A DNA stretch of 64,000 bases, taken from contig WTBR01000043.1 in NCBI GenBank assembly GCA_013138975.1, forward strand, positions 28,941-92,940, written 5' to 3'. Every line of letters starts with the position of its first letter. Position 1 is the stretch's first letter. The DNA comes from Bacteroidales bacterium. Lineage in GTDB: Bacteria > Bacteroidota > Bacteroidia > Bacteroidales > UBA12077. A program made the position numbers and the translations under genes. Below, one piece after another: positions 5,854 through 51,009 of this stretch. Under the pieces are notes generated by a model. That model worked only from the letters and a program-made list of their open reading frames with translations. It had not been told where the DNA came from and did no database searches.

Positions 5854-7560
5854 ATGAATAAAAACATGGTATCCGAAAATACAAGAATTTTAATGATGCA
5901 ATTACCCTTTTGGGCACCTTTAATTCCGCCACAGGGTATCGCACGACTTAAAACCTATTTGAATATGAATGGGTATAATAATGTTGTGACAATAGATGCA
6001 AATGTTGAAACTCAGTTTAAAAATATATACGAAGATTATTTTAATCACGCAAAAGAATATATTCCGGATGAGTTACACGGGAATTTTTACGATAATGGAC
6101 ATGATGTTTTCCGACTTCATTTAATGGCTCACTTGAATTGTAAAGTTGAGAAGGATTATATTCATCTGGCAGGATTGTTATTTGATTCAATTTACTTATA
6201 TATTCCATCAAACCAGGAAATCATTAATCTTAATAAGATTATAGATTCTTTTTATACTAAATTGGAAACATATTTCTTGTCTTTGATGAAGGAATATGAT
6301 CCGGAAATAATAGGATTTTCACTTCACAGCGGTAATTTCCCTGCAACCATATTTTTAAGTGAACTGGTAAGAAAAATAAGGCCTGATACTAAAATTATTC
6401 TTGGAGGTAGCATGTTTGCAGGTGAACTCAGACAAGAAACTCCGGATTTTGAAATGTTCATTAAAAGAACCGGAAATCTATTTGATAAAATTTTTATAGG
6501 ATTAAGCGAACGTGCCTTATATAAATATTTGCGTGGAGAATTGCCTGAAGATAAAAAAGTAATTTGTCAAGAGGATTTGAACGAGAAAATAATGACCATA
6601 AATTCTTTTGTAAAACCGGATTTATCTGATTTTGATTTATCAAAATACTCAACAATTGCGAGTTATACCTCTTTAAGTTGTACAAATGAATGTAGCTTTT
6701 GTAACGAAAAATCATTTTGGGGTGAATATCAAAAGAGAGATTTATCATTGGCAGTGAATGAGATAGTGAAGTCTTATGAAGAATATAAACCCGGTTATTT
6801 TTTCATGTTAGATGTAATGTTAAATCATACAATAGATGATTTTTCGAAAGCCATAATTGAAACAAAATTGCCAATATACTATGATGGTTATTTAAGAGTA
6901 TCTGAAGATTCGTGCGACTATGAAAAATGCATGACATGGAGACAGGGAGGATTATATAGGGTAAGAATGGGCTTGGAGAGTGGATCGCAAAAATTGCTTG
7001 ATGATATGAAAAAAGGGATTACTGTAGAGCAATCAAAACAAACTTTACATAACCTTGCGAAAGTAGGTATCAAAACAACAGGTTATTTTGTAATTGGTCA
7101 TCCGGGAGAAACAGAAGAAGATTTTATTAAAACCCTTAATTTTATTGAAGAATCAAAAGATAATTTCTGGCAAATAGAACCACATGTGTTTAATTATATG
7201 CATACGGGACAAAATTCGGGTGACATCTGGTCTGAAAATAGAAGCCTTATTTATCCTGAAAAATATAATGAGCATCTTATTTGTACAAGATGGAAAATTG
7301 ATCTTGAGCCAAATAGAAACACGGTTTTTGAAAGGCTTTTAAGATTCGTTAAACATTGTGATAAGCTCGGTATCAAAAATCCGTATTATTCATATGAAAA
7401 ATATAATGCAGATCTCCGTTGGAAAAGATTGCATAAAAATGCAGTTCCTTCTACCTTGGAGCTTGATAGTCATAATTTTACTGATACAGTTCGTGGTATT
7501 GAGGATCGAATAGAAGCTGCAATTATCAAGGATGACTCAAATGGTGATTTTGCATTTTAA
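5854..7560 (+). CDS. B12-binding (class B) radical SAM enzyme
   Basis: The N-terminal Rossmann-like cobalamin-binding-type segment reads ILMMQLPFWAPLIPPQGIARLKTYL...EIIGFSLHS...KIILGGSMF. The CxxxCxxC radical SAM motif CTNECSFC lies at 6679-6702. It is a paralog of the 49333 gene and ends ...NGDFAF. Confidence 0.85.
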   Translation: MNKNMVSENTRILMMQLPFWAPLIPPQGIARLKTYLNMNGYNNVVTIDANVETQFKNIYEDYFNHAKEYIPDELHGNFYDNGHDVFRLHLMAHLNCKVEKDYIHLAGLLFDSIYLYIPSNQEIINLNKIIDSFYTKLETYFLSLMKEYDPEIIGFSLHSGNFPATIFLSELVRKIRPDTKIILGGSMFAGELRQETPDFEMFIKRTGNLFDKIFIGLSERALYKYLRGELPEDKKVICQEDLNEKIMTINSFVKPDLSDFDLSKYSTIASYTSLSCTNECSFCNEKSFWGEYQKRDLSLAVNEIVKSYEEYKPGYFFMLDVMLNHTIDDFSKAIIETKLPIYYDGYLRVSEDSCDYEKCMTWRQGGLYRVRMGLESGSQKLLDDMKKGITVEQSKQTLHNLAKVGIKTTGYFVIGHPGETEEDFIKTLNFIEESKDNFWQIEPHVFNYMHTGQNSGDIWSENRSLIYPEKYNEHLICTRWKIDLEPNRNTVFERLLRFVKHCDKLGIKNPYYSYEKYNADLRWKRLHKNAVPSTLELDSHNFTDTVRGIEDRIEAAIIKDDSNGDFAF

Positions 7561-8953: not shown

Positions 8954-10789
8954 ATGACTCATAGAAATAAATTTATCGTAAAATTAATTCACTGTGGAAA
9001 TAATAACCCTGTGAATCTTAATGATAAAGCACAAAAGAATATGTTTTTTATGCCCATGGGTTTACTCATGTTGGCAGAGGCTTTGAATAAGGAAAATTAC
9101 GATGTAGAGGTAATTCATTCAGATATTGAAACTGATTCACTGGACGATATTTTGGACTTTAACAATATCAATGCCATTGGGTTTGATTGTCATTGGATAA
9201 ACCAAAGTTTGGCTATTCTGGAAACAGCAAAATACATTAAAGAAAAGAATAGTTCAATTTTTATTTTCCTGGGTGGATTTTCTGCAAGCTTATTTTATTC
9301 TGAGTTATTAACAGAATACGACTATTTCGATGCAATAATTAAAGGAGATGGAGAGAAACCATTACTGGAATTATGTAAAGTATTAAGTGAAAATCTAAAG
9401 GAGGAACAGACTGAAGTAAACCTTGATTTAAAGAGCGTTTCTAATTTAGTATGGAGAGAAAACGGTAATGTTATCGATAATAAAACGGATTATATTGCTT
9501 CATCTCAGGATGTAGAAGATTATACTTTTGCAAAATTTGATTTACTAAAAAATTGGGAGTTCTATAGAGATTTATCGAATTACTATTCGCATTTCAAACC
9601 AATTAGTGAACACCCAATGTATTTACTGGAAATAGGCAGGGGATGTGAAAATTCATGTGCGTATTGCGGTGGAAATAGTGTAGCTCAAGAAAAGATAAAT
9701 AATAGAAGTAATGTATTCTTTAGAAGTATATCTTCAGTAATTGAATCAATTAAAGAATCTTATTCTTATGGATTTCGAGTTTATTATTTTAGTTTAGAGT
9801 GTAAAGAAAGCGATGAATATTATCAACTTTTGTTTCAGGAAATTAAGAAGCTTGATTTACCCATATATGTGGTGTATGGTGCATGGAGATTGCCTTCAGC
9901 TAATATAATTGATCAAATTTCAGCTTGTTGCGAACAATCGGTTCTTGAGATTTCTCCTGAAACTTCAAATGAGTTACTAAGGAAAAAAAATAAAGACAAT
10001 AAGATTTATTTCTCAAACACCCAGCTTGAAGAGTGTTTATCACATATTAAAAGCAAGCAAAATATTAAAGCGCAAATATTTTTTGGATACTATCTCTCAG
10101 GGGATTCTAAAGAAACAATTTTATCTACGATAGAGTATATTTTACATTTATTGGCAAGTTATAATGGAATGGTAGAAATTGAGTACTCTAATTTCTCTAC
10201 CGACCCGGGTTCTTTATATTTCTTTAAACCAGAAAGTTATGATATAAATATTAGTACGAGAAATTTCGATGATTATATCACGAATCTTAAAAGAATGTAT
10301 GTGGATAATAGCGATAATCCGGCTGATATGACCTTGTTTCGTCCAAATACAATTTCGGAAGAGGAATCTCAAAAGATATTCTTACTAATGAGAATATTTA
10401 ATTATATATTCATCACATATCGAAACACGATCACCTTGTATTTTGAGGAAACAGGAGAAATAAACTTTTTATTAAACTTGATAAATAAATTCGATACAAA
10501 AAATCTACTGAATTATGACTCAAAATTAATACAGGACATTTTTGATGAATTATTTTCCATATTTAAACCCACTGGTGAAGAAATACGAATTGTATTTCTA
10601 AGCGAATTTGAAAAATCACACAACAGTCATACTATCTCAAGACCTACCACACAACTATTTATGGATAGTGAATTGGCACATCAGTTTTTGGAACGTTGCG
10701 ATAGATCGATTTTAACAAAATACCAACTTAATATTGAAGGGCAATTAGCCGAACAAAAAGAGAAGGATCAAGGAGATTTTAATTTTTAG
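8954..10789 (+). CDS. B12-binding (class B) radical SAM enzyme
   Basis: The N-terminal B12-binding-like segment reads FFMPMGLLMLAEALNKENYDVEVIHSD...AIGFDCHW...IFLGGFSAS...AIIKGDGEKPLLEL. The CxxxCxxC motif CENSCAYC lies at 9644-9667. It ends ...QGDFNF. Confidence 0.85.
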   Translation: MTHRNKFIVKLIHCGNNNPVNLNDKAQKNMFFMPMGLLMLAEALNKENYDVEVIHSDIETDSLDDILDFNNINAIGFDCHWINQSLAILETAKYIKEKNSSIFIFLGGFSASLFYSELLTEYDYFDAIIKGDGEKPLLELCKVLSENLKEEQTEVNLDLKSVSNLVWRENGNVIDNKTDYIASSQDVEDYTFAKFDLLKNWEFYRDLSNYYSHFKPISEHPMYLLEIGRGCENSCAYCGGNSVAQEKINNRSNVFFRSISSVIESIKESYSYGFRVYYFSLECKESDEYYQLLFQEIKKLDLPIYVVYGAWRLPSANIIDQISACCEQSVLEISPETSNELLRKKNKDNKIYFSNTQLEECLSHIKSKQNIKAQIFFGYYLSGDSKETILSTIEYILHLLASYNGMVEIEYSNFSTDPGSLYFFKPESYDINISTRNFDDYITNLKRMYVDNSDNPADMTLFRPNTISEEESQKIFLLMRIFNYIFITYRNTITLYFEETGEINFLLNLINKFDTKNLLNYDSKLIQDIFDELFSIFKPTGEEIRIVFLSEFEKSHNSHTISRPTTQLFMDSELAHQFLERCDRSILTKYQLNIEGQLAEQKEKDQGDFNF

Positions 10790-23654: not shown

Positions 23655-23705
23655 TCTTAAGAAATAGATAATTAAAGATATAACAAATAATTTAAGAGAA
23701 ATAGA

Positions 23706-24359
23706 ATGTCAAATTTAGTATTATATGTAAACCCTAACGACAGAGGAAAAGCAGAGAAAATGATGGCTGCCGGTGGTGCAAATTCGAGAGCAGTTCAGGT
23801 GAAATTTAAGCGAGGAAATCAAACCCAAAGTTACGATATTGATAATCTTGAAGATATAAGAGTCGGTGATTTAGTTGCTGAAAAGATTTTTTGGATCGGA
23901 CATGGTAGGGCAGGAGCATTATCAGCAAAAGATGGAACAACTACCGAAAATACCAAAATAACTAAAGACGGTACATTTATCACATCCAAATCTATTCGTG
24001 AGTTATTAAATAAACTGAATACTCAGGTTTTCACGATACAGGGTTGTGATGTAGCCAAAGGAAATGGAAGTGAAAAGTTTGCACGAAAACTAGCTGAGAA
24101 TACGAATAGTCTGGCTATAATCAATATGTCGTCTAATCCTACAATGTTTGCACCATCTGGTAACCCAGCTCAAAATGTTACTTATTGGAATGCAATAATG
24201 CAGGATGTGCACATATTTTACAAAAGGGAACATGAATATTTTGTAAAGAGTACCCAGAGTGCGATGACTACCTTTGGAGGTGAGCCAATAGCTACTATTT
24301 GCCAAAATGGTGGTTATACTAAGAATCAGAAAGATCAATTAAAGGTTTCTGATTCCTAG
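23706..24359 (+). CDS. hypothetical small protein with His/Cys dyad arrangement (clan-CD cysteine-peptidase-like), distant paralog of previous gene
   Basis: The 217-aa ORF contains FWIGHGRAG (His codon 23901-23903) and FTIQGCDVAKG (Cys codon 24045-24047) 48 aa apart. This resembles the IGHGK...LLGCN pattern of C80-type cysteine protease domains. Confidence 0.5.
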   Translation: MSNLVLYVNPNDRGKAEKMMAAGGANSRAVQVKFKRGNQTQSYDIDNLEDIRVGDLVAEKIFWIGHGRAGALSAKDGTTTENTKITKDGTFITSKSIRELLNKLNTQVFTIQGCDVAKGNGSEKFARKLAENTNSLAIINMSSNPTMFAPSGNPAQNVTYWNAIMQDVHIFYKREHEYFVKSTQSAMTTFGGEPIATICQNGGYTKNQKDQLKVSDS

Positions 24360-29414: not shown

Positions 29415-32400
29415 ATGACGAATTTATCTAAGGAAAATACCACTTTAAATAAAAAAAGAGAAGAAAATAATTATTGGAAGACTCTTTTGTCTGGTATTAC
29501 ATTACCAACATATATACCTGTAGATTCTACTGTAATTAGGGGTGAGGGTGACTATAAGGAATTTAGCATTAATTTAGATGATGAAAGTTCTTCCTTTATT
29601 CTTAAAATCAGTAACAATTCAAACGTTCGTTTGCATATAATTCTTGTTTCGCTTGTAAAAGTATTGTTATATAAATACAGAACCCAATCCGAATTATTAA
29701 GTATAACAACAATCGATAAGCAGGTATCAGACAAAAAAATATTAAATCACATCTTACCATTTAAAACTTTTGTAGCCAAAGACCAATCTTTTAAAGAAGT
29801 TATTTTAGCTGTTAAAGAATCGTTGAAACAAGCATCCGATAACCAGAATTATCCAATTGAAAAGTTGGCAAAATCTATCGAACGACAACTTCAGTTCGAG
29901 AAACCCTACGGCTTATTTAACATAGCTATTCTTTTAGATGGCATGCATGATGAAAAATATTTAGAAGGAATTGATTGTCATTTGCTTTTTAAATTCCGAA
30001 AAATAAACGATAAGATCAATTTAGTTATTAAATATAAGGATGAATTATATACAAAGAATAAGATAGAACGAGTAGCCGGTCATCTGAAAAACATAGCCAA
30101 TTCCATAAGTAACAATATAGAATTACAAGTTAATTCAATCAACTATCTTTCAGAAAATGAAAGCAAAAACTTATTAGAAGGTTTAAATGAAAACATAGAA
30201 CAACCAATTCCGGAATCGATTTACCAAGTTATAAAAGAAAACGCAAAGAAATATGCCCATAAAGTAGCTCTTGTATATAAAGATGAACACATTACATATC
30301 AGGTATTAGACAAAAAGGCTAACAGCATAGCAAAAATATTGAAAATAAAAGGCGTAGTCCAAAATTCAATAGTAGGAGTGCTTGGGAATCGCTCTATGAA
30401 TACCATGTTAAATATCCTCGGAACACTAAAAGCTGGAGGAACCTATTTGCCTATTGATCCTGAATATCCTTTAGATCGAATAAAATTTATGATCGAGGAT
30501 GCAAACATTAAGTATTTATTAGTGGATCCTGAGGTGTATAGTAAGATTGAGATATCTGGTTTATTTGAAGAATTGGAAGATTCCACGGAATTAATACATA
30601 CTCAATGCAGGAGTCAAATTGAGGATTTTAATTCATTACCATTTCCCGATAGGTCGAAAGTGGACTATGACAAGTATAATAAACACATTGGTCAGGCCAT
30701 GGTAAAGAATAGTATTGCTATTCAAGCTACCCGTGGTTGTCCATATGCATGTGCATATTGTCATAAAATTTGGCCAAAGAAACATGTTTGGAGAAGTTCA
30801 GATAATATTTTCGAAGAAATACAGATGTATTACAATCAAGGAATAAAACGATTTGTTTTCATCGACGATATTTTCAATCTGAAAAAGAACAATAGCAAAG
30901 ATTTATTTAAAAAAATTATTGATAAGGGATTAAAAATTCAACTATTCTTTCCTAATGGCTTGCGAGGCGATATTTTAAATGAAGAGCTGATTGACCTTAT
31001 GGTTGAAGCAGGGATGGTTAATGTAGCCCTTGCATTGGAAACAGCATCTCCACGATTACAAAAGCTCATAGGAAAAAACTTGAACCTCGACAAACTAAGA
31101 ACCAACATCAACTATATCTGTGAAAAACACCCACATGTAGTTCTTGAATTGTTTACCATGCATGGCTTCCCAACCGAAACAGAAGAAGAAGCGAATAGCA
31201 CACTCGAATTTATTAAAAGTATTAAATGGCTTCATTTTCCATATGTTCATATCCTGAAAATATATCCTAATACCGATATGTCCAAATTGGCTATTGAAAA
31301 TGGAATATCTTCACTCGATATTGACAATTCGGCAAATTTATCCTATCACGAACTCCCGACCACTTTACCTTTTGAAAAGTCTTTTACTTTAAAATATCAA
31401 TCGGATTTTTTCAATAATTATTTCTTATCAAAAGAACGTTTGATAAAGGTTTTACCGCATCAAATGAAAGTTTTAACCGAGGACGAAATAGTTCAGAAAT
31501 ACAATAGTTATTTACCCGTTAACATAACTAATATTGAAGAATTGCTGGAATTCTTAAAAATTAGTAAAGAAGAACTGGGGGCATTCGAATTTGTTCAGGA
31601 AGATGAGTTTCATGTAAAAGATTTAAATAAAAAACTACAAGCTTGTTTTAAAAAAGATTACGAAGTAGAAAAAAATGCCTTCAAAATCCTTTTACTTGAC
31701 CTGTCACAGAATTTAACTTCCGATGAAGAGATGCTTTACGATGTAGTTGAGCCCCCTTTAGGCTTGATGTACCTCGCCGCATATGTAGAAGGCAAATTCA
31801 GGCAGGATGTTGATGTGCGAGTTTTAAAATCAAAAATTGATTTCGACAACTTTAGCGCTTTAAAGAATATATTAGATGATTTCAAGCCCGACGTAATCGG
31901 AGTCAGGACATTATCCTATTATAAAGAATTTTTTCATGAGACCATATCTAATATTCGTTTATGGAATCCATCGATCCCGATATTAGCTGGTGGGCCTTAT
32001 CCATCGAGCGACTATATGTCAACCCTGAAAGATGGCAACATAGATTTAGTAATTCAAGGAGAAGGAGAATTTACGTTTGGCGAAATTGTCGAATGCATGA
32101 TGAAGAATGATAATAAGTTGCCCGATGAGGAGCAGCTTAAAACCATAGATGGAATCCATTTCATGAAAAAGTCGGTGCTTAAACGTCAGATTATATCCAC
32201 CGATTTTAAGAACATAAACTCTGAACCGGAAGAATTAGCACATATCAATAAACCAGACGATGGCGCATACATTATATATACTTCAGGCACAACCGGTAGG
32301 CCAAAAGGAGTTATGGTATCCCATGAAAATGTTTTAAGCCTGTTAATAAATAACAATCATTTATTTGATTTCAATAAAGAAGATATTTGGTCAGTATTTC

Positions 32401-35400
32401 ATTCCTTATGCTTTGATTTTTCGGTTTGGGAAATATTTGGCAGCTTGTTTTTTGGAGGCAAAGCCATATTAATACCAACCGACATAACAAAAGATCCCGA
32501 TTGTTTCAGGGATGTATTACAAAAAGAAAAGGTTACAATATTAAATCAAACCCCATCATCCTTTTATAATGTTATTAATAAAGAACTTCAAAGCGAAAAT
32601 AAATCATTAAAGTTACGAAGCATCATATTTGGAGGCGAAGCATTGAATCCTTCGAAGTTATCCAAATGGAGAAATTCATACCCCAATGTGAAACTTGTAA
32701 ACATGTTTGGGATTACCGAAACAACAGTACATGTAACGTATAAAGAAATTACCCAAAAAGAAATTGAAGAAGGAATAAGCAATATAGGCAAATCGCTGCC
32801 AACCTCATTAACACTGGTTTTGAATGAAAATATGGAGCTGTTACCAATAGGTATGCCTGGAGAGTTATATGTTGGCGGAAGCGGAGTTTCTTTGGGCTAT
32901 TTAAACAGGACTGAATTGAATTTCGATAAATTTATAAATAAGAATAATGATTATAAAACACAAGTCTATAAAACAGGGGATAAAGTAGTATTAAATGAAA
33001 AATACGAATTAGAATATATAGGTCGAATAGATGAGCAGATTCAACTTCGTGGTTTTAGGATTGAATTAAAGGAAATTGAATCTGAGATGAATAATCATGA
33101 CAAAATTGATAATGCTTATGTTGAACTATTTGAAAAAGACGAAGAAAAATACCTGAGTGCCTATTATGTTTCTAATGAGGAACTAGAAAATGCTGAAATA
33201 AGAAAATTCTTGCAAAAGAGATTGCCTTATTACATGTTACCATCATATTACATAAGAATTGACAATATTCCTTTAACAATTAATGGTAAAATCGATAAGA
33301 AATTATTGCCTAAACCCAGTGTTTTAAACTGCTTGTTCGAAGTTGTTGCTCCTGAAAATGAACTTCAGGTTCATCTGGTCGAAATCTGGAAGAAAGTTTT
33401 ACAGGTAAATAACATAGGAATCGAGGATAGTTTCTTTAATCTCGGGGGCGACTCGATAAAAGGAATAAGGCTTGTAAATGCAATAAATGAAAACTTGGAC
33501 ACCAGGCTTAGAGTAGCCGATCTGTTTAAGAACGATACCATTAGGACACTGAGTTTGATCGTAAAAAATAAAGAAGCAGATCAAGAAAACAATAAAGAAA
33601 CACAGCTTCTAAAAGATTTTGAACAAATAAAAGAAAGCGCCTTTCAAAAAAATATATACAATCAACACGAAATTGAGGATCTCTACCCAATGAGTGATAT
33701 TCAGCGAGGAATGGTTTATCATGCTATAAAAAGTGCTGATAAAGCTGTATACCACGATCAAATGATTCATCAAATAAAGATACCTGATTTCAAACAAAAT
33801 ACATTAAAGGATGCGTTGAAATTAATGAGTCAGAAACACTCCATTTTAAGGGCATCATTTAACATGGAAAATTTTGAAGAATCCAGTATTGTAATTTTCA
33901 AGGAAATAGAAATCGACTATCAGCATGAGGATATCTCCGAAATGCCAAAAGACAGTAAAGTAGAATTCCTGGGTAAATACCTCGAAGACGATAAGAAAAA
34001 GATTCTAAGAACCGACCAAAAAGGCTTATGGAGGTTGAGAACATTTCAGGTAGATGAGAATGAGATTTTCGTTTTATTCGTTTGCCACCATGCCATAATT
34101 GATGGATGGAGTGATGCCTCATTTATTACAGAATTGCATAATTTGTATTTTAAACTTCTTGAAGACATAAATTATGTTCCTGTAAAACTGAAATCGACCT
34201 ATAAAGATTATGTAATTGATCAAACCATTGAAAGAAGCAATAATGAAAATATTAATTTCTGGAAAACAGAACTTTCCGGAGTAAAGAAATACGATGATAG
34301 GTATTTTTTAAATAAGCCACAGATAACTAAAAATGAGTTTAAATTTAGTATAAACGAGCTGGATAGCGATTTAGTAAGTAAGATAAATAAAAAAGGGAAA
34401 GATCTAAATATCAGCCTTAAATCCATTTATCTTACAGCCTTTAGTTTTGCACTAAACATGTTCTCTTTTGAACCTGATTTTGTATTTGGATTAGTTTCAA
34501 ACTCTCGAATCGCAAAACCCGATGGAGATAAAATCCTTGGATGTTTCTTGAACACCTTGCCACTAAAGATAAAATTCTCCTTAGAACAGGAAAATCAGGA
34601 CTTAATGACTTACTTTAATACTAAATTAAATGACCTGAAAAAATACGATTCAATTTCATTGTTCGAGATACTAAAATTTGCAGATCATGAAGGAGCTGAA
34701 AACGCTTTATTCGATATAATATTTAATTATGTCGATTTTCATATCCTTAATCAAATTGATTATACACAGGAACAAAAATCAGGAATTCCTTACCTGGTAT
34801 CCAAACTAACAGGTAATGCACGGGCAGATACCCCATTAAATTTCACGCTCGATACAACAAAAGAAAGTGTTAAGTTTTATTCCTCCTTCGATTCCTCGAA
34901 ATACAGCGAAGAAAAAGTAAAACAAATCCATATTTATTTAGTACGTGCCCTGGAAATACTTTCAGGAGATGATTCTGCCAGCTTATCAAAATCGCAGTTA
35001 ATAGATAAAAACGAGAAACAAGAAATACTAAATACATTAAACAATACCGATACATCATATCCTAAGGATAAAACGATACATCAATTATTCGAAGAGCAGG
35101 CAGAACGAAGCCCTGATAATATAGCTTTGGTATTAGGTTCAGAGTCAATCACATATTCAGAGTTAAATAAGAAATCGAACCAACTGGCACAATATCTGAT
35201 ACATAACGGAGCCTTAGAGAGTGATTTTATAGGGATAATAAACGAACCTGCTATAGAAGTTTACATAAGTATTTTAGCTATATTGAAAACCGGAAAGGCT
35301 TATTTGCCAATAGATAACTCCTTGCCAGATTCGCGAATACAATTCATGTTAAACGATTGTGGGGTGAAAATACTTTTAGCATCGAACCTTAAAACACAAT

Positions 35401-38400
35401 ATCTTGATAATGATAAAAATCCGATTGTTCCAATAAATATTTTTGAAACACTTATAGGAGGTTCAAGTAACTTGAACTTAAAAACCTCTTCGACTAGCCC
35501 TGCATATGTAATTTATACATCCGGCTCAACGGGGAAACCCAAAGGAGTTTTAATTGAGCACAAGTCTTTAGTAAACTTATCTTTTAATCATAATAAATTC
35601 TATGGAATTAAATCCGACGATCGTTTAAGCAAATTTGCTGGCTTTGGTTTCGATGCTTCCGTTTGGGAAATTTTTCCAAGTTTTATTGCTGGTTCATCCT
35701 TATATATTATTGATGAAAATATAAAACCCGATCCGGGGAAAGTAAATAAATATTTCGAGAAGAATAACATAACAGTAAGTTTCTTACCAACACAGTTTTG
35801 TGAGAAATTTATGGAATACGATAATAAATCACTGAAAATATTATTGACAGGAGGAGATAAGCTAAATTATTTTAAGAAAAGAGATTATAAATTATATAAT
35901 AATTATGGCCCTACCGAAAATACTGTTGTTACAAGCAGATTTGAAGTACAGAATTTGGAAAATAATATTCCAATAGGTAAACCAATAGAAAATATTCAAG
36001 TTTATATTTTAGATCGATATTCTCAGGTTCAAGCATTTGGGGTTCCGGGCGAGCTATGTATTTCAGGAATTGGATTAGCGAAAGGATATATTGGGAATGA
36101 TGAATTAAGCGCTGAAAAATTTACTAAGCACCCATTTAATAAAGGAGAACGAATATACCGAACCGGAGATTTAGCATGTTGCTTGCCCGATGGTAATATT
36201 GAGTTTTTAGGTAGGATTGATCAACAGGTAAAGATCCGGGGTTTTAGGATTGAGTTGGGAGAGATTGAGTCGGTTTTGCTTAAACATGAGTATGTTCAAG
36301 AAAGTGTTGTATTAACTAGAGAAGAAACCGGCGATAAACATCTGTGTGCTTACATAGTTTGCAAGGAAGGTTATATTCAGGAAAATCTTCGACAATACTT
36401 ATCAACTTTACTTCCGGATTATATGGTTCCGGCTTATTTTGTGGACTTGGAAGCGCTGCCGATAAGTCCAAGCGGAAAAGTAAACCGCAAAGCTCTACAG
36501 GCTCTTGAGATCGAGGCAGGTGCAGATTATATAGCACCATCGAATGCGATAGAAGAAAAGTTGCTTGATATTTGGTCAGAAATTTTAAATACCCCGGTCG
36601 AAAAAATAAGTGTAATGGCTAATTTTTTCTTAATAGGAGGCCATTCACTCAAAGCTACCGTGTTAGCAAGTTATATACATAAAGAAATAGGGGTTGAATT
36701 TCCTTTAGAAGATATATTTTTACATACAAGCATTAGAGCTCAAGCATGTCAAATAAGAATAAGTAAAAAGACAGAGTTTGTGTCCATACCAAAAACAGAG
36801 GAACAATCAAATTACCCGGTATCTCCTGCACAGAAGCGATTGTATTTTCTACAACAGTTTGATTTGGAGTCAATAGCCTATAATATGCCCAATGTGTTTT
36901 CATTGGGAAAAGAGGCCGATAAAAGAAAAATAGAAGAAGTATTCAAACAACTGATAGATCGTCATGAGAGTTTTCGCACAAGTATTATTGTTGTTGATGG
37001 TGAGCCTGTTCAGTTTATAAGTAAGGAAGTTGAGTTTGAGCTCGAAGAACTGAGTATAACAAACAATGAAGTTGAAAACACACGAAATAAATTCATAAAG
37101 CCTTTTGATTTATCTAACGCACCTTATTTACGAGTGGCCTTAGTAAATATTAAGGGAGAAGATAGCTTGTTAATGATAGATATGCACCATATTATAAGTG
37201 ATGGAACCTCACATATAATCTTAGAGAAAGAATTTCAGACTTTATATTCAGAAAAAGAATTGACTCCATTAAAGTTGCAATACAAGGATTATAGTCAGTG
37301 GCAAAATAGTAACGAGCAGCAAGAGTTTATAAAAGATCAGGAACAATATTGGCTTACTAAATTTGAAGGAGAGATACCGGTATTGAGTCTTCCAATGGAT
37401 TATGTCCGGCCTTTAATGCAAAGTCAAGAAGGAGCAACCGTAAATTTTATCCTGAGCAAAGAAGAAACAGAAGGGATAAGATTATTCAGCAAAGAAAATG
37501 ATCTTACTTTATATATGTCCTTGTTATCTGTATTTAGTATTCTATTATCGAAGCTAAGTGGACAAGATGATATAGTAGTAGGAACACCAATAGCCAGTAG
37601 AAATCATGCAGATTTGGAGAATATAGTAGGCATGTTTGTGAATACACTATCTATACGTAATGCAGTAAAAGGAGAAGAAACTATACGAGATTTCGTATCA
37701 AGCTTAAAGCAAACAGTTCTTGGAGCATACGAAAATCAGAATTACCAATTCGAAGATTTAGTAGGCAAGATTTCAGTAGAGCGAGATACCGGCCGCAATC
37801 CTATTTTCGATGTAATGTTTAATTTGTTGAATCAAGCTGAGTATAATGGATCAATAAATGAAGATATTGATAATAGTCATAAGAAGGGAACATCAAAATT
37901 CGATTTAAATTTAACAGCAATTGAATTTGAAAATAATATATCTTTAAGTATAGAATACAGTACAAGATTATTTAAAGAAGAGACATTAGATCGATTTATA
38001 AACTATTTTAAACAGATAGTAGCTCAATTAACAAGAAAGTCAGAATTAAAAATCTCGGCAATTGATATTCTTACAGAAGATGAGAAACATCAGGTGTTGT
38101 ATGAGTTTAACAATACAAAAGCAGATTATCCAACAGATAAGACAATTCATCAGCTTTTTGAAGATCAGGTAGAGAAAACACCCGAGAATATTGCGTTATC
38201 CTTAAATGGAGAAACCGTCAAATATTCGGAGCTCAATGCCAAAGTAAATCAATTGGCATGGAAACTAAGAGAGCAAGGGGTGAAAAATGATTCAGTGGTA
38301 GGTTTGTTTGTTGAACGTTCCATAGAGATGGTGGTAGGAATTTTGGGGATATTAAAATCAGGTGGAGCTTATTTACCCATAGATACAGAGTATCCTAAGG

Positions 38401-41249
38401 ATAGAATATCCTATATGTTTGAAGATAGTAAGTTGCAAATCTTATTGGTCAATACCGATATTTCAAATCTGAATCTTGAAACAGAGCAATACTTAATTTA
38501 TGATCTTAGGGATGAAAGCAGTTATGCTTCAAATACATCTAATCCAGATGTAATTGGAACACCTGAAGACTTGGTTTATATAATTTATACCTCTGGTTCT
38601 ACAGGTAAACCTAAAGGTGTAATGCTGAAAGACAAGAATATGGTTAATCTCATACAATTTGATTATGACAAGACCAATTTAGATTTTAGCTCTATCTTAC
38701 AATTTTCGACCATTAGTTTTGATGCCTCGGCTCATGAAATATTCGGAGCTTTATTAAGTGGAGGAAAACTTGTTTTAGTTGACGAATCTACACGTTTAAA
38801 TGTAATGGGGATTTTCGAATTAATGACAAAAGAACAAGTTAAAACTGTTTTCTGGCCCATGTCATTAATAAAATTGATATTTGGGGATCAAACTTTTGTT
38901 GATCAAATACCAAAATGCTTACGTCATCTTCAAACTGCAGGGGAAAAGGTTATTATAAATGAGTCGTTAAGAAATTACCTTAAAACGAACAATGTATTTA
39001 TACATAACCATTACGGGCCATCAGAAACCCATGTTGTAACAACTTTAACAATAGCACCGAATGAAGATCATCCGGAATTTCCTACAATAGGTAAACCTAT
39101 TTCAAACACAACAGCTTATATCTTGGATAAGAGTCTCAATCTTGTACCTGTAGGAGTTAAAGGAGAACTTTATTTTGGAGGAACTCAGGTTGGAAGAGGA
39201 TATTTTGGAAAAGAGGAACTTACCAGAGAGAAGTTTATTGAAAGTCCATTTATTAAAGGAGAAAAAATTTATCAAACAGGAGATATAGCACGTTGGTTAC
39301 CTGATGGTAACATCGATTTTTTGGGAAGGGTCGATCACCAAGTAAAGATTCGTGGATTTAGGGTAGAATTAGGCGAGATAGAGAGTGCTTTATTAAAATA
39401 TGAAAACATAAAAGAGATTGTAGTTCTTGCTAGGGAAGAAAAAGGAGACAAGTACTTGTGTGCATATATAGTTAGTACTGAAGAAATTGATCATGAAGAG
39501 CTAAGAGCGTATATGTCGGAACGGCTTCCCGATTATATGGTTCCTTCTTATTTTGTTGTGCTTGAGAGTTTCCCACAAACTGCAAACGGAAAGATAAATA
39601 GTAAAGCTTTGCCGAAACCGGAAATAAAAGAAGGAGACGATCATGTAGCACCATCCGCAGAAATAGAGGAAAAGGTAGTTGAAATATGGTCGGAAGTCTT
39701 AGATATCGATAAAGAAAATATAAGTGTAAATTCTGATTTTTTCTCATTAGGAGGCCATTCCTTAAAAGCGATAGCATTATTATCCAAAATTGAGAAAGAA
39801 TTCTCGGTAAGAATTGCAATGAAAGATTTCTTTGCTAATCCAAGTGTGAAGAAGCTGGGTAAATCGATTTTAAAATCGAAAAAAACTACAAATAATACAA
39901 AACTGGTACCCGTTGAATCGAAGGAATATTATGTAGCATCTATGCCTCAAAAGAGATTGTATTTTATACAAAACCTTAATCCTGCGGATAAAAGCTATAA
40001 TGTTTCTGCTGCCTTTACCATTAAAGGTGAACTTGATAAACAGAAATTTGAAAATGCATTACAACAACTAATAAATCGACATGCAGGTTTAAGGACTTCA
40101 TTCATAATGCTTAATGATGAAATAGTACAAAAAATAAACAATAAGCTTGAACCTCGGCTTACGTACATAAATGAAGATGATAAGGACATTCCCCAAATCA
40201 TTAAAGACTTTATTACACCCTTTGAATTATCTGAAAAATCATTATTTAGAGTTGGCTTGGTTAAAACAAAGAAAAATGATTCGATATTAATTCTGGATAT
40301 GCACCATATTATTTCTGATGAAGTATCCAACAGGATTATATTCGGTGACTTTGTTGATTTTTATAATGGTAAAAAATTAAGCTTGCTGAAAATTCAATAT
40401 GTGGATTTATGCGAGGAGCAGGAGGAAATGAAAAAGCGGGATGTTCTGAATACACAAAAGGTTTTCTGGGAGAATTATTATGATAATTACAATAATGACA
40501 GTTCACTTCCGTATGATCTTAACAAAGACGATCAATTAAAGAATAAAGGAAATATAATATCATTTACTCTTGACGGTTCAATGAATCAGGATTTGATAAA
40601 AATAAGAGAAGAATATAATTCATCCATTTATATTATAATCCTTTCCGTATTTAACATCCTTCTTTCGAAAATTTTAAATCATGATGATATCGTTGTAGGA
40701 TCGCCTATTACTGGGAGAGAAAACCCGGCCTTGAAAAACATCGTGGGATATTTAGTGAATACTTTGGCAATGCGCAGTATTGTTAATGGGGAAGCTAAAT
40801 TTGTTGATTTCTTAAAAATAGTAAACGATAGAACATTAGATGCAATTGATAATAGCAATTACGATACAATAGAATTAATTAATAAAATCAATAAAAGTGG
40901 AAGGAACAAAGGCAAGTCATTATTCGATATAATGTATACATACAATATTGTTGAAAGCAATAAGGCGAGTTTGTCAAACATAAATGTTGAACCATATACA
41001 TTTGATGGATTTTCGTCGCAATGCGATATAAAACTGAGAGTTATGGATAATAAAAATTCCTTATCACTTGCTTTTGAATACAACGAAAACTTATTCCTCG
41101 AAGATAAAATTCATAGATACATTAAGTATTTTAAGAAAATATTAAATGACATTATATTAAATCCTGAAATTACAATTGACGAAATAAATTTAACTTCTGA
41201 AAAAGATGAAGTTAAGCTAATGAATTCTTTAGTAGAAGATTTAGAGTAA
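29415..41249 (+). CDS. trimodular NRPS, half-C - A(interrupted by rSAM/B12 unit) - T - C - A - T - C - A - T - C
   Basis: The N-terminal region is C-lobe-only (NNYWKTLL...). Module 1: A1 has ITYQVL and LKAGGTYLPID, is then interrupted, and resumes with YIIYTSGTTGRPKG, FDFSVWEIF, NMFGITETTVH, YKTGDKV, GRIDEQIQLRGFRIELKEIE, INGKIDKK. T1 is FFNLGGDSI. The first C domain has LYPMSDIQRGMVYH and HHAIIDGWS. Module 2: A2 has YTSGSTGKPKG, NNYGPTENTVV. T2 is LIGGHS. The second C domain has YPVSPAQKRLYFLQ and HHIISDGTS. Module 3: A3 has YTSGSTGKPKG, NHYGPSETHVV. T3 is SLGGHS. The final C domain has YYVASMPQKRLYFIQ and HHIISDEVS. Confidence 0.9.
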   Translation: MTNLSKENTTLNKKREENNYWKTLLSGITLPTYIPVDSTVIRGEGDYKEFSINLDDESSSFILKISNNSNVRLHIILVSLVKVLLYKYRTQSELLSITTIDKQVSDKKILNHILPFKTFVAKDQSFKEVILAVKESLKQASDNQNYPIEKLAKSIERQLQFEKPYGLFNIAILLDGMHDEKYLEGIDCHLLFKFRKINDKINLVIKYKDELYTKNKIERVAGHLKNIANSISNNIELQVNSINYLSENESKNLLEGLNENIEQPIPESIYQVIKENAKKYAHKVALVYKDEHITYQVLDKKANSIAKILKIKGVVQNSIVGVLGNRSMNTMLNILGTLKAGGTYLPIDPEYPLDRIKFMIEDANIKYLLVDPEVYSKIEISGLFEELEDSTELIHTQCRSQIEDFNSLPFPDRSKVDYDKYNKHIGQAMVKNSIAIQATRGCPYACAYCHKIWPKKHVWRSSDNIFEEIQMYYNQGIKRFVFIDDIFNLKKNNSKDLFKKIIDKGLKIQLFFPNGLRGDILNEELIDLMVEAGMVNVALALETASPRLQKLIGKNLNLDKLRTNINYICEKHPHVVLELFTMHGFPTETEEEANSTLEFIKSIKWLHFPYVHILKIYPNTDMSKLAIENGISSLDIDNSANLSYHELPTTLPFEKSFTLKYQSDFFNNYFLSKERLIKVLPHQMKVLTEDEIVQKYNSYLPVNITNIEELLEFLKISKEELGAFEFVQEDEFHVKDLNKKLQACFKKDYEVEKNAFKILLLDLSQNLTSDEEMLYDVVEPPLGLMYLAAYVEGKFRQDVDVRVLKSKIDFDNFSALKNILDDFKPDVIGVRTLSYYKEFFHETISNIRLWNPSIPILAGGPYPSSDYMSTLKDGNIDLVIQGEGEFTFGEIVECMMKNDNKLPDEEQLKTIDGIHFMKKSVLKRQIISTDFKNINSEPEELAHINKPDDGAYIIYTSGTTGRPKGVMVSHENVLSLLINNNHLFDFNKEDIWSVFHSLCFDFSVWEIFGSLFFGGKAILIPTDITKDPDCFRDVLQKEKVTILNQTPSSFYNVINKELQSENKSLKLRSIIFGGEALNPSKLSKWRNSYPNVKLVNMFGITETTVHVTYKEITQKEIEEGISNIGKSLPTSLTLVLNENMELLPIGMPGELYVGGSGVSLGYLNRTELNFDKFINKNNDYKTQVYKTGDKVVLNEKYELEYIGRIDEQIQLRGFRIELKEIESEMNNHDKIDNAYVELFEKDEEKYLSAYYVSNEELENAEIRKFLQKRLPYYMLPSYYIRIDNIPLTINGKIDKKLLPKPSVLNCLFEVVAPENELQVHLVEIWKKVLQVNNIGIEDSFFNLGGDSIKGIRLVNAINENLDTRLRVADLFKNDTIRTLSLIVKNKEADQENNKETQLLKDFEQIKESAFQKNIYNQHEIEDLYPMSDIQRGMVYHAIKSADKAVYHDQMIHQIKIPDFKQNTLKDALKLMSQKHSILRASFNMENFEESSIVIFKEIEIDYQHEDISEMPKDSKVEFLGKYLEDDKKKILRTDQKGLWRLRTFQVDENEIFVLFVCHHAIIDGWSDASFITELHNLYFKLLEDINYVPVKLKSTYKDYVIDQTIERSNNENINFWKTELSGVKKYDDRYFLNKPQITKNEFKFSINELDSDLVSKINKKGKDLNISLKSIYLTAFSFALNMFSFEPDFVFGLVSNSRIAKPDGDKILGCFLNTLPLKIKFSLEQENQDLMTYFNTKLNDLKKYDSISLFEILKFADHEGAENALFDIIFNYVDFHILNQIDYTQEQKSGIPYLVSKLTGNARADTPLNFTLDTTKESVKFYSSFDSSKYSEEKVKQIHIYLVRALEILSGDDSASLSKSQLIDKNEKQEILNTLNNTDTSYPKDKTIHQLFEEQAERSPDNIALVLGSESITYSELNKKSNQLAQYLIHNGALESDFIGIINEPAIEVYISILAILKTGKAYLPIDNSLPDSRIQFMLNDCGVKILLASNLKTQYLDNDKNPIVPINIFETLIGGSSNLNLKTSSTSPAYVIYTSGSTGKPKGVLIEHKSLVNLSFNHNKFYGIKSDDRLSKFAGFGFDASVWEIFPSFIAGSSLYIIDENIKPDPGKVNKYFEKNNITVSFLPTQFCEKFMEYDNKSLKILLTGGDKLNYFKKRDYKLYNNYGPTENTVVTSRFEVQNLENNIPIGKPIENIQVYILDRYSQVQAFGVPGELCISGIGLAKGYIGNDELSAEKFTKHPFNKGERIYRTGDLACCLPDGNIEFLGRIDQQVKIRGFRIELGEIESVLLKHEYVQESVVLTREETGDKHLCAYIVCKEGYIQENLRQYLSTLLPDYMVPAYFVDLEALPISPSGKVNRKALQALEIEAGADYIAPSNAIEEKLLDIWSEILNTPVEKISVMANFFLIGGHSLKATVLASYIHKEIGVEFPLEDIFLHTSIRAQACQIRISKKTEFVSIPKTEEQSNYPVSPAQKRLYFLQQFDLESIAYNMPNVFSLGKEADKRKIEEVFKQLIDRHESFRTSIIVVDGEPVQFISKEVEFELEELSITNNEVENTRNKFIKPFDLSNAPYLRVALVNIKGEDSLLMIDMHHIISDGTSHIILEKEFQTLYSEKELTPLKLQYKDYSQWQNSNEQQEFIKDQEQYWLTKFEGEIPVLSLPMDYVRPLMQSQEGATVNFILSKEETEGIRLFSKENDLTLYMSLLSVFSILLSKLSGQDDIVVGTPIASRNHADLENIVGMFVNTLSIRNAVKGEETIRDFVSSLKQTVLGAYENQNYQFEDLVGKISVERDTGRNPIFDVMFNLLNQAEYNGSINEDIDNSHKKGTSKFDLNLTAIEFENNISLSIEYSTRLFKEETLDRFINYFKQIVAQLTRKSELKISAIDILTEDEKHQVLYEFNNTKADYPTDKTIHQLFEDQVEKTPENIALSLNGETVKYSELNAKVNQLAWKLREQGVKNDSVVGLFVERSIEMVVGILGILKSGGAYLPIDTEYPKDRISYMFEDSKLQILLVNTDISNLNLETEQYLIYDLRDESSYASNTSNPDVIGTPEDLVYIIYTSGSTGKPKGVMLKDKNMVNLIQFDYDKTNLDFSSILQFSTISFDASAHEIFGALLSGGKLVLVDESTRLNVMGIFELMTKEQVKTVFWPMSLIKLIFGDQTFVDQIPKCLRHLQTAGEKVIINESLRNYLKTNNVFIHNHYGPSETHVVTTLTIAPNEDHPEFPTIGKPISNTTAYILDKSLNLVPVGVKGELYFGGTQVGRGYFGKEELTREKFIESPFIKGEKIYQTGDIARWLPDGNIDFLGRVDHQVKIRGFRVELGEIESALLKYENIKEIVVLAREEKGDKYLCAYIVSTEEIDHEELRAYMSERLPDYMVPSYFVVLESFPQTANGKINSKALPKPEIKEGDDHVAPSAEIEEKVVEIWSEVLDIDKENISVNSDFFSLGGHSLKAIALLSKIEKEFSVRIAMKDFFANPSVKKLGKSILKSKKTTNNTKLVPVESKEYYVASMPQKRLYFIQNLNPADKSYNVSAAFTIKGELDKQKFENALQQLINRHAGLRTSFIMLNDEIVQKINNKLEPRLTYINEDDKDIPQIIKDFITPFELSEKSLFRVGLVKTKKNDSILILDMHHIISDEVSNRIIFGDFVDFYNGKKLSLLKIQYVDLCEEQEEMKKRDVLNTQKVFWENYYDNYNNDSSLPYDLNKDDQLKNKGNIISFTLDGSMNQDLIKIREEYNSSIYIIILSVFNILLSKILNHDDIVVGSPITGRENPALKNIVGYLVNTLAMRSIVNGEAKFVDFLKIVNDRTLDAIDNSNYDTIELINKINKSGRNKGKSLFDIMYTYNIVESNKASLSNINVEPYTFDGFSSQCDIKLRVMDNKNSLSLAFEYNENLFLEDKIHRYIKYFKKILNDIILNPEITIDEINLTSEKDEVKLMNSLVEDLE
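30540..32180 (+). other. radical SAM + B12-binding-like unit embedded in adenylation domain 1 (between core motifs A2 and A3)
   Basis: The insert lies in-frame inside the 29415 CDS. A2 (LKAGGTYLPID) is at ~30427-30460. The radical SAM motif ATRGCPYACAYC has its CxxxCxxC at 30738-30761. The Rossmann/B12-type segment (FKILLLDLSQ...PPLGLMYLAAYVEG...VIGVRTLSY...ILAGGPYPS...DLVIQGEGEFTFGEIVE) is at ~31680-32160. A3 (YIIYTSGTTGRPKG) is at ~32263-32310. Boundaries are approximate. Confidence 0.75.
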
Positions 41250-47020: not shown

Positions 47021-47155
47021 AGTTTAAAAAAATGAAAACCCACTAAATTGCAACAATGGCTAAAAAAATTGCTACATTTAATGATTAGAGAAAAGTAGAA
47101 ATAGGGAATTCTATTTTTTTTTAAAACTTGTGCAGTAAATTCATTTAAAAAATAA

Positions 47156-48052: not shown

Positions 48053-48096
48053 CCTGCCCGCCGAATAATGTGCTAAGGCAGGTGGGAATGACGGAG

Positions 48097-49332: not shown

Positions 49333-51009
49333 ATGAATATTTTACTCGGATTATTACCTTTTTGGGATCCTCAAATTCCACCATTAGGGATTGCATGCTT
49401 AAAAAGTTATTTAAATAAAAATGATCTTGATGCAGTTTGTTTTGATTTAAACACCAAAATAGAATTTCGAAATATTTACGATAAATATTTTAGTGTCTTA
49501 AATCGAGTAATCCCCGAAGACAAAAAAGGGAACATTTACAATATTGGAAATCAGGTTGTAAGAAATCATCTCACAGCACATTTGCATGTTGAATCTCAGG
49601 AAAAGTATTTTTTGGTTTTAGGAACCTTGGTTTTAAATACTTTTTATACCAAACTTGAGAATGATGATTATATTGAGTTAATAAATATTGTTAAAGAATA
49701 TTATGTATTACTTGAAAAAGCAATACGTGAATTATTCCTTAAGCATAAACCGACAATATTTGGTTTATCAGTGTTTGGTGATACATTAGGACCATCAATT
49801 TTTGCTTTTAAATTGGCAAAAGAAATAAACCCTGAAATAAAAACGATAATGGGTGGAGGTATTTTTGCCGATCAGCTAGCGCCAAATTCTCCTAATCTTG
49901 AGTATTTTATGAATTATTCTCGCAGTTTTATCGATAAGTACGTTATTGGTGAAGGCGAAGAGCTATTTCTTGCATTTGTTAAAGACGAAATTCCGGAAGA
50001 TGAAATTGTATTATCAAAGCAAAGCAGTGGAAACTATCTGAGTATTGATGAATTGAACGTTCCTGTTTATGATGATTTTGAACTTAAACATTATGCTCAT
50101 GTTGGATTTTATGGGGCAAGAAGTTGTCCATTTCAATGCAATTTTTGTTCTGAAACAATTAATTGGGGAAAATATCGAAAAAAGGAGATAGACAAAACAG
50201 TAAGTGAATTTAAATTATTAAATGAGAAGTATAATAATCAATTGTTTTTATTGACCGATTCAACATTAAATCCTGTTGTTACTCCACTTTCAGAAGCATT
50301 AATAAAAGCTGATTTTACAGTGTATTGGGATGGATTTTTAAGAGCCGACAAACACGTTTGCAGTGAAGAGAATACTATACTATGGAGAAAAGGCGGGTTT
50401 TATAGAGCTAAATTGGGCTTAGAAAGTGGATCTCAGCGTATGTTGGATTTAATGAATAAATCAACATCAGTTGAAACCTATAAAAAAGCGCTAGCCAGTC
50501 TCGCCTTCGCAGGAATAAAAACAACAACATTTTGGCTATTTGGATTCCCCGGTGAAACAGAGGAGGACTTTCAAAAAACACTTGACTTTTTAGAAGAGTG
50601 TAAAGATTATATATACGAGGCCGATTGTAATGCTTTTAATTATTTCGTATCAGGTCAGGCAAATTCAGATGATTGGTTGCAAAATAGCACAAGTTCAGCG
50701 CTATTCCCGGAATGGACAAGAGAATATTTTATTACACAAACAAATGTATTGGATAGTTTACCTTCCAGACAAGATGCCTATTCTCGGGTCAATCGTTTTA
50801 TGGAACATTGTAAAAAACTAGGAATACCTAATCCATATTCTTTAACAGATATTGATAAGGCAGATAAACGATGGAAAAGCTTACATCTTAATGCTGTTCC
50901 TGCCTTAATGGATTTTAAAAGTAATACATATATAGATGAATGTAAAGATGTAAAACAATATACGTTTACATCAGAAGTCGATACAGAAGATTTTGAGTTT
51001 GATCTTTAA
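49333..51009 (+). CDS. B12-binding (class B) radical SAM enzyme (paralog of 5854 gene)
   Basis: The N-terminal segment is LLPFWDPQIPPLGIACLKSYL...IFGLSVFG...KTIMGGGIF...YVIGEGEELF. The CxxxCxxC motif CPFQCNFC lies at 50125-50148. It is collinear with the 5854 protein to the C-terminus (NPY..AD.RWK.LH.NAVP). It ends ...TEDFEFDL. Confidence 0.85.
   Translation: MNILLGLLPFWDPQIPPLGIACLKSYLNKNDLDAVCFDLNTKIEFRNIYDKYFSVLNRVIPEDKKGNIYNIGNQVVRNHLTAHLHVESQEKYFLVLGTLVLNTFYTKLENDDYIELINIVKEYYVLLEKAIRELFLKHKPTIFGLSVFGDTLGPSIFAFKLAKEINPEIKTIMGGGIFADQLAPNSPNLEYFMNYSRSFIDKYVIGEGEELFLAFVKDEIPEDEIVLSKQSSGNYLSIDELNVPVYDDFELKHYAHVGFYGARSCPFQCNFCSETINWGKYRKKEIDKTVSEFKLLNEKYNNQLFLLTDSTLNPVVTPLSEALIKADFTVYWDGFLRADKHVCSEENTILWRKGGFYRAKLGLESGSQRMLDLMNKSTSVETYKKALASLAFAGIKTTTFWLFGFPGETEEDFQKTLDFLEECKDYIYEADCNAFNYFVSGQANSDDWLQNSTSSALFPEWTREYFITQTNVLDSLPSRQDAYSRVNRFMEHCKKLGIPNPYSLTDIDKADKRWKSLHLNAVPALMDFKSNTYIDECKDVKQYTFTSEVDTEDFEFDL

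Follow-up and report, generated by a model that had tools for sequence, protein, structure and literature searches.

Interrupted adenylation (A) domains of nonribosomal peptide synthetases (NRPSs), which carry a second enzyme within their own fold, act on the substrate bound to the carrier (T) domain (PMC11355689), and the methyltransferase (M) domains inserted between their motifs a2 and a3 methylate side chains (PMC8341866). A 2020 census of bacterial interrupted A domains recognized seven families, in each of which a class I M domain sits at a2-a3, a6-a7 or a8-a9; the words 'radical', 'B12' and 'cobalamin' do not occur in it. Class B enzymes of the radical S-adenosylmethionine (SAM) superfamily, which pair a radical SAM (rSAM) barrel with a cobalamin-binding Rossmann domain, also take part in NRPS pathways, CysS being one (PMC7966384). 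Here we analyse a 64,000-nucleotide stretch of a Bacteroidales bacterium (positions 28,941 to 92,940 of contig WTBR01000043.1, assembly GCA_013138975.1; hereafter the window), in which the first A domain of a large NRPS is interrupted at a2-a3 by what appears to be a complete, circularly permuted class B rSAM enzyme. That this passenger C-methylates, in cis, the residue bound to the neighbouring carrier domain is the reading that we favour, at somewhat better than an even chance.

The window is a single large gene cluster of NRPS and polyketide synthase (PKS) type with a GC content of ~31% and every gene on the + strand. The uninterrupted frame of 3944 amino acids (aa) claimed in the original prediction was borne out by the open reading frame (ORF) at 29415..41249 (+), which is free of stop codons. 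Through cluster membership the protein was identified as NCBI NOQ25399.1, an 'amino acid adenylation domain-containing protein' from a Bacteroidales metagenome-assembled genome (MAG). Pfam matches comprise four Condensation stretches, three carrier domains and four AMP-binding stretches that make up three A domains, in the order half-C, A*(rSAM/B12), T, C, A (Leu code), T, C, A, T, C, where C is a condensation domain and A* the interrupted A domain.

The AMP-binding match of A* is in two pieces on either side of the insert, the second restarting at profile position 131 of 384. The N-terminal fragment (30201..30530, residues ~263-372) holds motifs a1-a2, with a2 (LKAGGTYLPID) at residue 338 (nucleotides (nt) 30426-30458). 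The remainder (32235..33344, residues ~941-1310) holds motifs a3-a10, all intact, among them a3 (IIYTSGTTGRPKG) at residue 953 (nt ~32268-32309), a5 (NMFGITE) at residue 1096 and a7 (YKTGD) at residue 1185. Alignment with seven uninterrupted A domains from the same window delimited the extra material to residues ~373-940, about 568 aa. Once these residues were excised, BLASTP matched the sequence in one collinear stretch of 472 residues (2-473; 45% identity, E 1e-148) to the Thr-code A domains of ORFs 51190 and 58235, which are uninterrupted. The nine specificity residues, DFWNIGMVH, form what we take to be the classical Thr code and are identical in two other A domains of the cluster. The split A domain is therefore whole: motifs a1-a10 are present, it has a Thr code, and after excision it is collinear with uninterrupted Thr A domains. 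The original prediction had placed the insertion at a2-a3, with the A domain resuming at a3 and running through a10, and had extracted the code DFWNIGMVHK by hand; the alignment and the canonical motifs a3-a10 agree with it, the code was recovered as DFWNIGMVH(K), and a2, the CxxxCxxC motif and a3 all lie where it put them. It had also named a frameshift or assembly error as a possible source of the fusion. Such an artefact is excluded because the in-frame architecture recurs in independent assemblies (L004, L006, L007, L008 and L084) and in about 145 cluster representatives.

The inserted unit begins with an N-side linker (30531..30581, residues ~373-389) that is predicted to be disordered. 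It is followed by an rSAM partial TIM barrel with the helical domain found at the C-terminus of canonical enzymes (30582..31511, residues ~390-699), and this part contains the CxxxCxxC motif of the [4Fe-4S]/SAM cluster as CPYACAYC (30738..30761, residues 442-449). A connector, placed by alignment coordinates (31512..31673, residues ~700-753), leads to a cobalamin-binding Rossmann domain of class-1 type with PLGL, GGP and GEGE motifs (31674..32201, residues ~754-929), and a C-side linker of low confidence (32202..32234, residues ~930-940) ends the unit. Both domains that the original prediction had read from a cluster motif and a Rossmann segment gave Pfam matches above threshold: Radical_SAM (PF04055) over residues 437-600 (E 6e-19; 69-74 bits, the threshold being 29.5) and B12-binding (PF02310) at residues 779-891 (E 2e-11, 44-47 bits against 32.1). 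The Pfam scan of the insert returned no Methyltransf and no DUF512 match. The CxxxCxxC motif lies inside the PF04055 core and its cysteines are invariant in 85 homologues, which places the unit in the radical SAM superfamily, and its Rossmann-type PF02310 domain, which shares 31% identity with the N-terminal domain of ORF 8954, is as expected of class B. Among these homologues, which are about 50% identical to one another, ~40 alignment columns are invariant, and the window insert keeps every one. They include, in insert numbering, R71-G-C73-P-x2-C77-x2-C80 and D116-x-F-N, and in the Rossmann domain P412-L-G414, G490-G-P492 and G513-E-G-E516.

In their NRPS A-domain host, a2-a3 site, intact A domain, SAM-dependent passenger and proposed action on the T-bound monomer, TioN, MarQ and the a2-a3 families of Lundy et al. 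(2020) resemble the present case. The passenger described here is not a class I SAM methyltransferase (M types I-VI) and falls outside families 1-7 of that study. In TioN and MarQ the passenger is a ~350-aa Rossmann class I M domain with an O, S or N nucleophile as its target, whereas here it is a ~560-aa two-cofactor radical SAM/cobalamin enzyme that would be expected to act on an unactivated C-H bond. Unlike those M domains, the inserted rSAM enzyme would also be oxygen-sensitive; its relatives are mostly from MAGs, of lineages that are presumably anaerobic.

In canonical class B rSAM enzymes the cobalamin-binding Rossmann domain precedes the rSAM barrel. The insert has the reverse order, with rSAM barrel, helical domain, connector and then Rossmann domain, and so departs from the class B rule of a B12 domain N-terminal to the rSAM domain. 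On NCBIfam models, insert residues 18-311 aligned with positions ~152-478 of BchE, HpnJ, PhpK, ApyD and Sden_1168, and insert residues 412-551 with positions 17-155 of KedN5. BLASTP against ORF 8954, a stand-alone gene of canonical order, gave two stretches in swapped order (insert 412-529 on 34-147, at 31% identity, and insert 67-113 on 225-279), and against ORF 5854 the first ordered residues of the insert (19-65) fell on the linker between the B12 and rSAM domains. When the insert was re-permuted in silico by placing residues 377-560 ahead of residues 18-376, it aligned in a single collinear stretch with ApyD 18-389, BchE 21-361, HpnJ 68-443 of 472, KedN5 17-359 and PhpK 73-410. Collinearity with the canonical models was regained only after this re-permutation. 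By these alignments the canonical class B architecture is circularly permuted in the passenger. Both of its ends fall on one point, the canonical B12|rSAM junction, and the old C- and N-termini are bridged by the new connector (insert ~331-384). Residues that follow one another in the canonical fold thus form the N- and C-termini of the insert, which should be neighbours in space, and a unit with adjoining termini could be spliced into the a2-a3 surface loop.

TokK, TsrM, CysS, PoyC, the BotRMTs, KedN5 and Fom3 have the same two domains and conserved motifs and are the nearest folds. Class B methylases of the TokK, TsrM and CysS type are free-standing and of canonical order, whereas the present unit is embedded and reversed. 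A December 2025 review lists Mmp10 as the only characterized enzyme with its cobalamin domain C-terminal to the rSAM domain (PMC13331322). In this respect Mmp10 and its DUF512 class 2 resemble the present unit, but the Mmp10 domain is atypical and 4-stranded (PMC13331322), whereas that of the insert is a PF02310 Rossmann domain, for which five main parallel strands are predicted. Membership in the Mmp10/DUF512 class is ruled out by these two features together with the missing DUF512 match.

We predicted the structure of the insert with AlphaFold2 (AF2) from the alignment of 85 homologues. The model was confident (mean predicted local distance difference test score, pLDDT, 90.3; predicted template-modelling score, pTM, 0.89), with disorder only in the linkers at residues 1-20 (pLDDT <50) and 561-576, and the Rossmann domain was predicted to have five main parallel strands and a terminal strand. 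Foldseek searches of the PDB with this model returned AprD4, MgmA, TsrM, RimO/MiaB, OxsB, CysS and TokK, and a sequence search of the PDB agreed with these neighbours. Each Foldseek match covers only ~230-340 columns, as expected because the insert is a permutant. The A domain was modelled together with its insert (residues 262-1310) from a 53-row alignment; uninterrupted A domains were left out of the rows, MAFFT having put their C-terminal parts inside the insert. This model had a pTM of 0.75, with pLDDT ~91-94 in the N-terminal A fragment and 65-91 over a3-a8; the A subdomain was poorly modelled because the alignment was too shallow. Foldseek aligned it with the TycA A-core structures 5N82, 7YWK and 5N81 (~396-401 residues) over ~950 columns, a span that includes the insert, at a target-normalized TM score of 0.70. 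The original prediction had looked to structure prediction for whether the A core refolds around the insert, and in the predicted model the core does reassemble around it. TioS(A4aM4A4b) (PDB 5WMM), to our knowledge the only solved interrupted A domain, has an A core that likewise folds normally around a catalytic insert and is among the Foldseek matches of our model, but its insert sits at a8-a9 in the A subdomain, has a class I fold and methylates the backbone N.

It might be argued that the insert is a decayed, non-catalytic passenger, or else an artefact, the more so as A domains interrupted at a2-a3 were formerly thought inactive (PMC8341866). With all of the ~40 invariant columns retained, a confident AF2 model, a reading frame that recurs in many independent assemblies and no homologue seen with lost cluster cysteines or stop codons, we find this hardly credible. 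A degenerate insert, in particular, is ruled out by the retained invariant residues and the confident predicted fold.

If the insert is an in-cis methylase, the A domain would adenylate L-Thr and load it onto the T domain of the module (33375..33554; GGDSI at residue 1344), in which the phosphopantetheine is expected on Ser1347, which presumably presents the substrate. The pantetheine arm would then bring Thr-S-T to the inserted enzyme, where SAM would be reductively cleaved to a 5'-deoxyadenosyl radical that takes an H atom from an unactivated sp3 carbon. Methylcobalamin would give its methyl group to the substrate radical, a second SAM would re-methylate the cob(I)alamin, and the downstream C domain would condense the C-methylated residue. 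CysS (cystobactamid) and DscE (discodermin) offer the likeness of class B rSAM C-methylases in NRPS pathways, and by the title of PDB entry 9N1B CysS has been crystallized with a pantetheinylated substrate. Both are nevertheless stand-alone enzymes of canonical order that act in trans; DscE C-methylates discodermin at Ala and Val carbons after release, in what has been called a 'RiPP-like modification' (RiPP, a peptide synthesized ribosomally and modified post-translationally) within NRPS biosynthesis (PMC12858407). For the window unit the in-cis cobalamin-dependent radical C-methyltransferase function is inferred, and a family-wide survey of host A domains gives it better grounding.

In this survey of 130 units, the host A domains had at least 10 specificity codes, Thr being the commonest (27 units), followed by Glu (13), Ile (13), a Lys/Orn-like DAE group (11), Leu (9), Asn/Asp (9), Val (8), a DANN group (8), Gln (6), Pro (5) and Ser (1). 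Hosts are thus far from being Thr only, which argues against a chemistry specific to the Thr side chain. The Gly code was found in none of the 130 host A domains, whereas 5 of 94 A domains without an interruption in these proteins have it. Insert identity was 59.4% between units with same-code hosts and 58.1% between those with different-code hosts, and no alignment column segregated cleanly by host code. With inserts ~58% identical across codes and not one Gly host, the enzyme probably attacks a carbon close to the backbone that every substrate has. The most likely candidate is C-beta, and methylation there would convert Thr into 3-methylthreonine (beta-hydroxyvaline). The sequences would fit a generic enzyme that recognizes the shared pantetheinyl thioester and backbone.

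The same uniformity could also mean that the unit is a C-methyltransferase acting elsewhere, either on the acyl or peptidyl chain upstream or, once condensation has taken place, on the growing peptide. The insert sequence does barely follow the host code, half of the units stand in the first module of their protein, right after the C domain of the preceding protein, and DscE methylates a finished NRPS peptide (PMC12858407). Against this, nearest-neighbour inserts shared the host code in 51 of 130 cases, where 11 were expected by chance, Gly hosts are missing from the survey, and wherever an interrupted A domain has been characterized, it modifies the monomer on its own T domain (PMC11355689). 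A substrate other than the tethered residue therefore strikes us as rather unlikely.

Alternatively, the unit might be a radical epimerase or another C-alpha-directed enzyme that stands in for epimerization (E) domains in these anaerobes. The E-domain signature [ED]GHGR is absent from the whole window, and uniformity across side chains is compatible with a C-alpha target. The structural neighbour MgmA, moreover, is named a glutamine methylase, its product in methyl-coenzyme M reductase (MCR) being 2-methylglutamine (PMC11796369), which we take to be a C-alpha methylation. The missing Gly hosts count against a pure C-alpha target, however, E-domain motifs are present in 23 of 145 related NRPSs, and the C domains downstream of A* modules in related proteins have the same distribution of motif types as other C domains, with no special type. 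For epimerization the cobalamin domain would be superfluous, and we know of no radical SAM peptide epimerase that has one. We consider this explanation very unlikely.

Several points weigh against the favoured reading. No curated NCBIfam cut-off was reached by the insert (best score, 108 bits against 575): PhpK, Sden_1168, ApyD, BchE, KedN5, AprD4, MgmA and HpnJ all fell below theirs. With scores so far below the cut-offs the chemistry is not transferable by homology, and a function taken from any one named family was dropped. Shared ancestry confounds the step from uniform inserts to a target carbon in common, and weak code-linked columns do exist, for instance position 167 of the insert, which is Arg in roughly half of the units with a Glu host. 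The adjacency of the insert termini is deduced from topology. Class B enzymes include non-methylases (PMC13331322), and the closest solved relative of the insert by both sequence (E 1e-13) and fold is AprD4 (PDB 6FD2), which is the best solved match for the rSAM half at 23% identity (Foldseek E 8e-13).

AprD4 is a dehydratase that does not use cobalamin, its cobalamin binding having been lost. The insert might accordingly perform non-methylating radical chemistry on the tethered residue, such as an AprD4-like 1,2-elimination or dehydration of Thr, an OxsB-like rearrangement or a cyclization, and Thr, a vicinal amino-alcohol, is the commonest host (27 of 130). Nevertheless, AprD4 differs from the insert as a cobalamin-free diol dehydratase of canonical order with an aminoglycoside substrate, and the AprD4 NCBIfam score was 75 bits against a cut-off of 500. 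The unit is ~58% identical in Leu, Ile, Val and Pro hosts, whose side chains hold no heteroatom to eliminate, and its class B Rossmann motifs are invariant, which would be unexpected if cobalamin binding had been lost. We therefore judge a non-methylating reaction unlikely, and continue to favour C-methylation of the carrier-bound residue.

We searched for relatives of the insert and found homologues 48-60% identical to it over >90% of its length. Judged by flank length, about 83 were stand-alone proteins of 540-600 aa with the same rSAM-then-B12 order, and about 41 were embedded in AMP-binding proteins; the MAGs that encode the latter carry the labels Aminicenantes, Acidobacteriota, Clostridia, Deferrimicrobium, Bacteroidales and Deltaproteobacteria. 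The stand-alone forms lie within NRPS/PKS clusters, adjoining A-T genes, as in the isolate [Clostridium] polysaccharolyticum and in a MAG with two tandem copies. A local hidden Markov model (HMM) scan of 84 loci related domain order to context: the permuted order was found only in nine NRPS loci (L001-L008 and L084), and the other, more distant loci (<=38% identity, archaea included) had the canonical B12-then-rSAM order in 75 of 75 cases. Near these 75 loci there were no condensation domains, and no A domains other than one isolated A-profile match (L045). The permuted form is a large, NRPS-dedicated clade that is either stand-alone or embedded at a2-a3. An exhaustive search over 1.84 billion cluster representatives (50% identity) returned 1218 at E<=1e-30. 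The best 150 of them were nearly all NRPSs of 1000-7900 aa with the unit internal, some with two units, and yielded 150 units, 128 of them with both A flanks. In those 128 the junction always lay at A-profile ~115-125 | ~121-142; in L006, AMP-binding restarts at profile position 127. A neighbour-joining (NJ) tree of 124 units was star-like, with embedded and stand-alone forms interleaved.

Variant forms of the unit were also observed. L007:3314-13534 (an Aminicenantes MAG), P0046 and P0107 have an a1-a2 fragment and an rSAM/B12 unit without the remainder of the A domain, for example with A(N-fragment)-rSAM-B12 behind a full A domain and ahead of ~200 aa and a C domain, or in the form T-rSAM-B12; the A N-fragment and the rSAM/B12 unit may thus move jointly as a cassette. 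The 725-aa gene L084:10001-12178 (JGI contig Ga0452210_001179) stops just past the B12 domain, and the gene after it overlaps and begins with the a3-a10 part of an A domain, so that the interrupted A domain has either been split naturally at its C-side junction or been broken by a frameshift. A form of ~725 aa occurs again in P0005, P0012, P0024 and P0037, and Ga0452210_001179 has at least three A*(rSAM) modules.

The original prediction knew of no A domain interrupted by a radical SAM enzyme, and we found no description of one in the literature searchable in full text, subscription-only papers lying outside that search. Radical SAM or B12 passengers are not mentioned in a 2024 review of A domains (PMC11355689), nor NRPSs or adenylation in a 2026 review of B12-rSAM enzymes, and related sequences are public under generic names only. 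The novelty lies in this lack of description, not in rarity. That the permuted cobalamin/rSAM unit in the a2-a3 loop is a widespread, undescribed NRPS domain, which during chain assembly C-methylates unactivated, backbone-proximal carbons of Thr, Val, Ile, Leu, Glu, Gln, Asx, Pro and other carrier-bound residues in the manner of RiPP enzymes and whose permutation enabled its insertion, we would put at an even chance.

The unit is a fourth chemical class of interrupted-A passenger, after class I methyltransferases, oxidases and pseudo-ketoreductases (pseudo-KR), and the first that could functionalize unactivated C-H bonds on the assembly line. Beta-branched or tert-alkyl residues of non-ribosomal peptides could arise by this concrete and testable route; the origin of the tert-leucine of hemiasterlin and plocabulin is an open question (PMC12858407). 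If the proposed function is true, the radical C-methylation known in RiPP style (tert-leucine, beta-methyl residues) becomes a programmed assembly-line step. The architecture is also a third topology of cobalamin radical SAM enzymes, where current reviews recognize two classes, and a natural circular permutation that accompanies the insertion of a two-domain metalloenzyme into the loop of another enzyme, which is relevant to the engineering of bifunctional A domains. At least 145 representatives among the best 150 matches belong to orphan NRPS clusters, from uncultured lineages including Bacteroidales, Clostridia, Aminicenantes, Acidobacteriota and Deltaproteobacteria, and the products of these clusters would be mispredicted if the insert were ignored.

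The module of the interrupted A domain has further features of its own. It is preceded by an N-terminal truncated condensation domain (29451..30161), which consists of the C-terminal lobe only (Pfam profile 190-451) without HHxxxD. A half-C of the same kind (profile ~190-451, no HHxxxD motif) also opens ORFs 18931, 11045 and 15009, and where proteins of the cluster start in this way the preceding protein closes with a complete C domain. In related proteins a half-C was found upstream of 61 of 75 rSAM units in first modules and of 0 of 75 internal units. The half-C may be a docking device or a pseudo-C scaffold. The C domain right after A*(rSAM)-T (33600-34980; residues ~1400-1860 of ORF 29415) has the motifs LYPMSDIQRGMVYH and HHAIIDGWS, and so departs from most other complete C domains of the window, which have a C1 motif of the SxAQKRLY type (where examined) and a C3 motif of the HHII[STA]D type. 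The N-terminal C domain of ORF 1049 is likewise divergent (HHILYDGWS). In related proteins divergent C-domain motifs did not go together with a preceding A* module.

Three stand-alone B12-rSAM genes, all in the canonical order of B12 then rSAM, lie elsewhere in the window at 5854..7560, 8954..10789 and 49333..51009, all on the + strand. With three such genes in the cluster besides the insert, a heavily C-methylated product is suggested. The first two flank a gene of the peptidase-U32 family (7603-8766, 387 aa). This family takes in oxygen-independent hydroxylases such as UbiU/UbiV, and the U32-family gene together with the B12-rSAM genes suggests further anaerobic tailoring steps. Five other ORFs of the cluster, of 173, 217, 324, 217 and 201 aa (23133-24359 and 46046-48941), had no Pfam match at E<=0.001.

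The ORF at 41453-45937 (+; 1494 aa) apparently contains a second, different interrupted A-like domain. Its A profile runs over positions 10-229 (residues 2-224), is followed by a ketosynthase-acyltransferase (KS-AT) linker and an acyltransferase domain (Pfam, residues 253-649), and restarts at 232-485 (residues 672-930), after which come T and C domains. This architecture, an AT within an A domain, was found nowhere else among the other 145 NRPS proteins and the 84 loci. The a3 P-loop of the A-like domain is degenerate (DIIYYYLQSTKDGLQ), and a7 and a8 seem degenerate as well; the domain may be an adenylation-dead scaffold that bears the AT.

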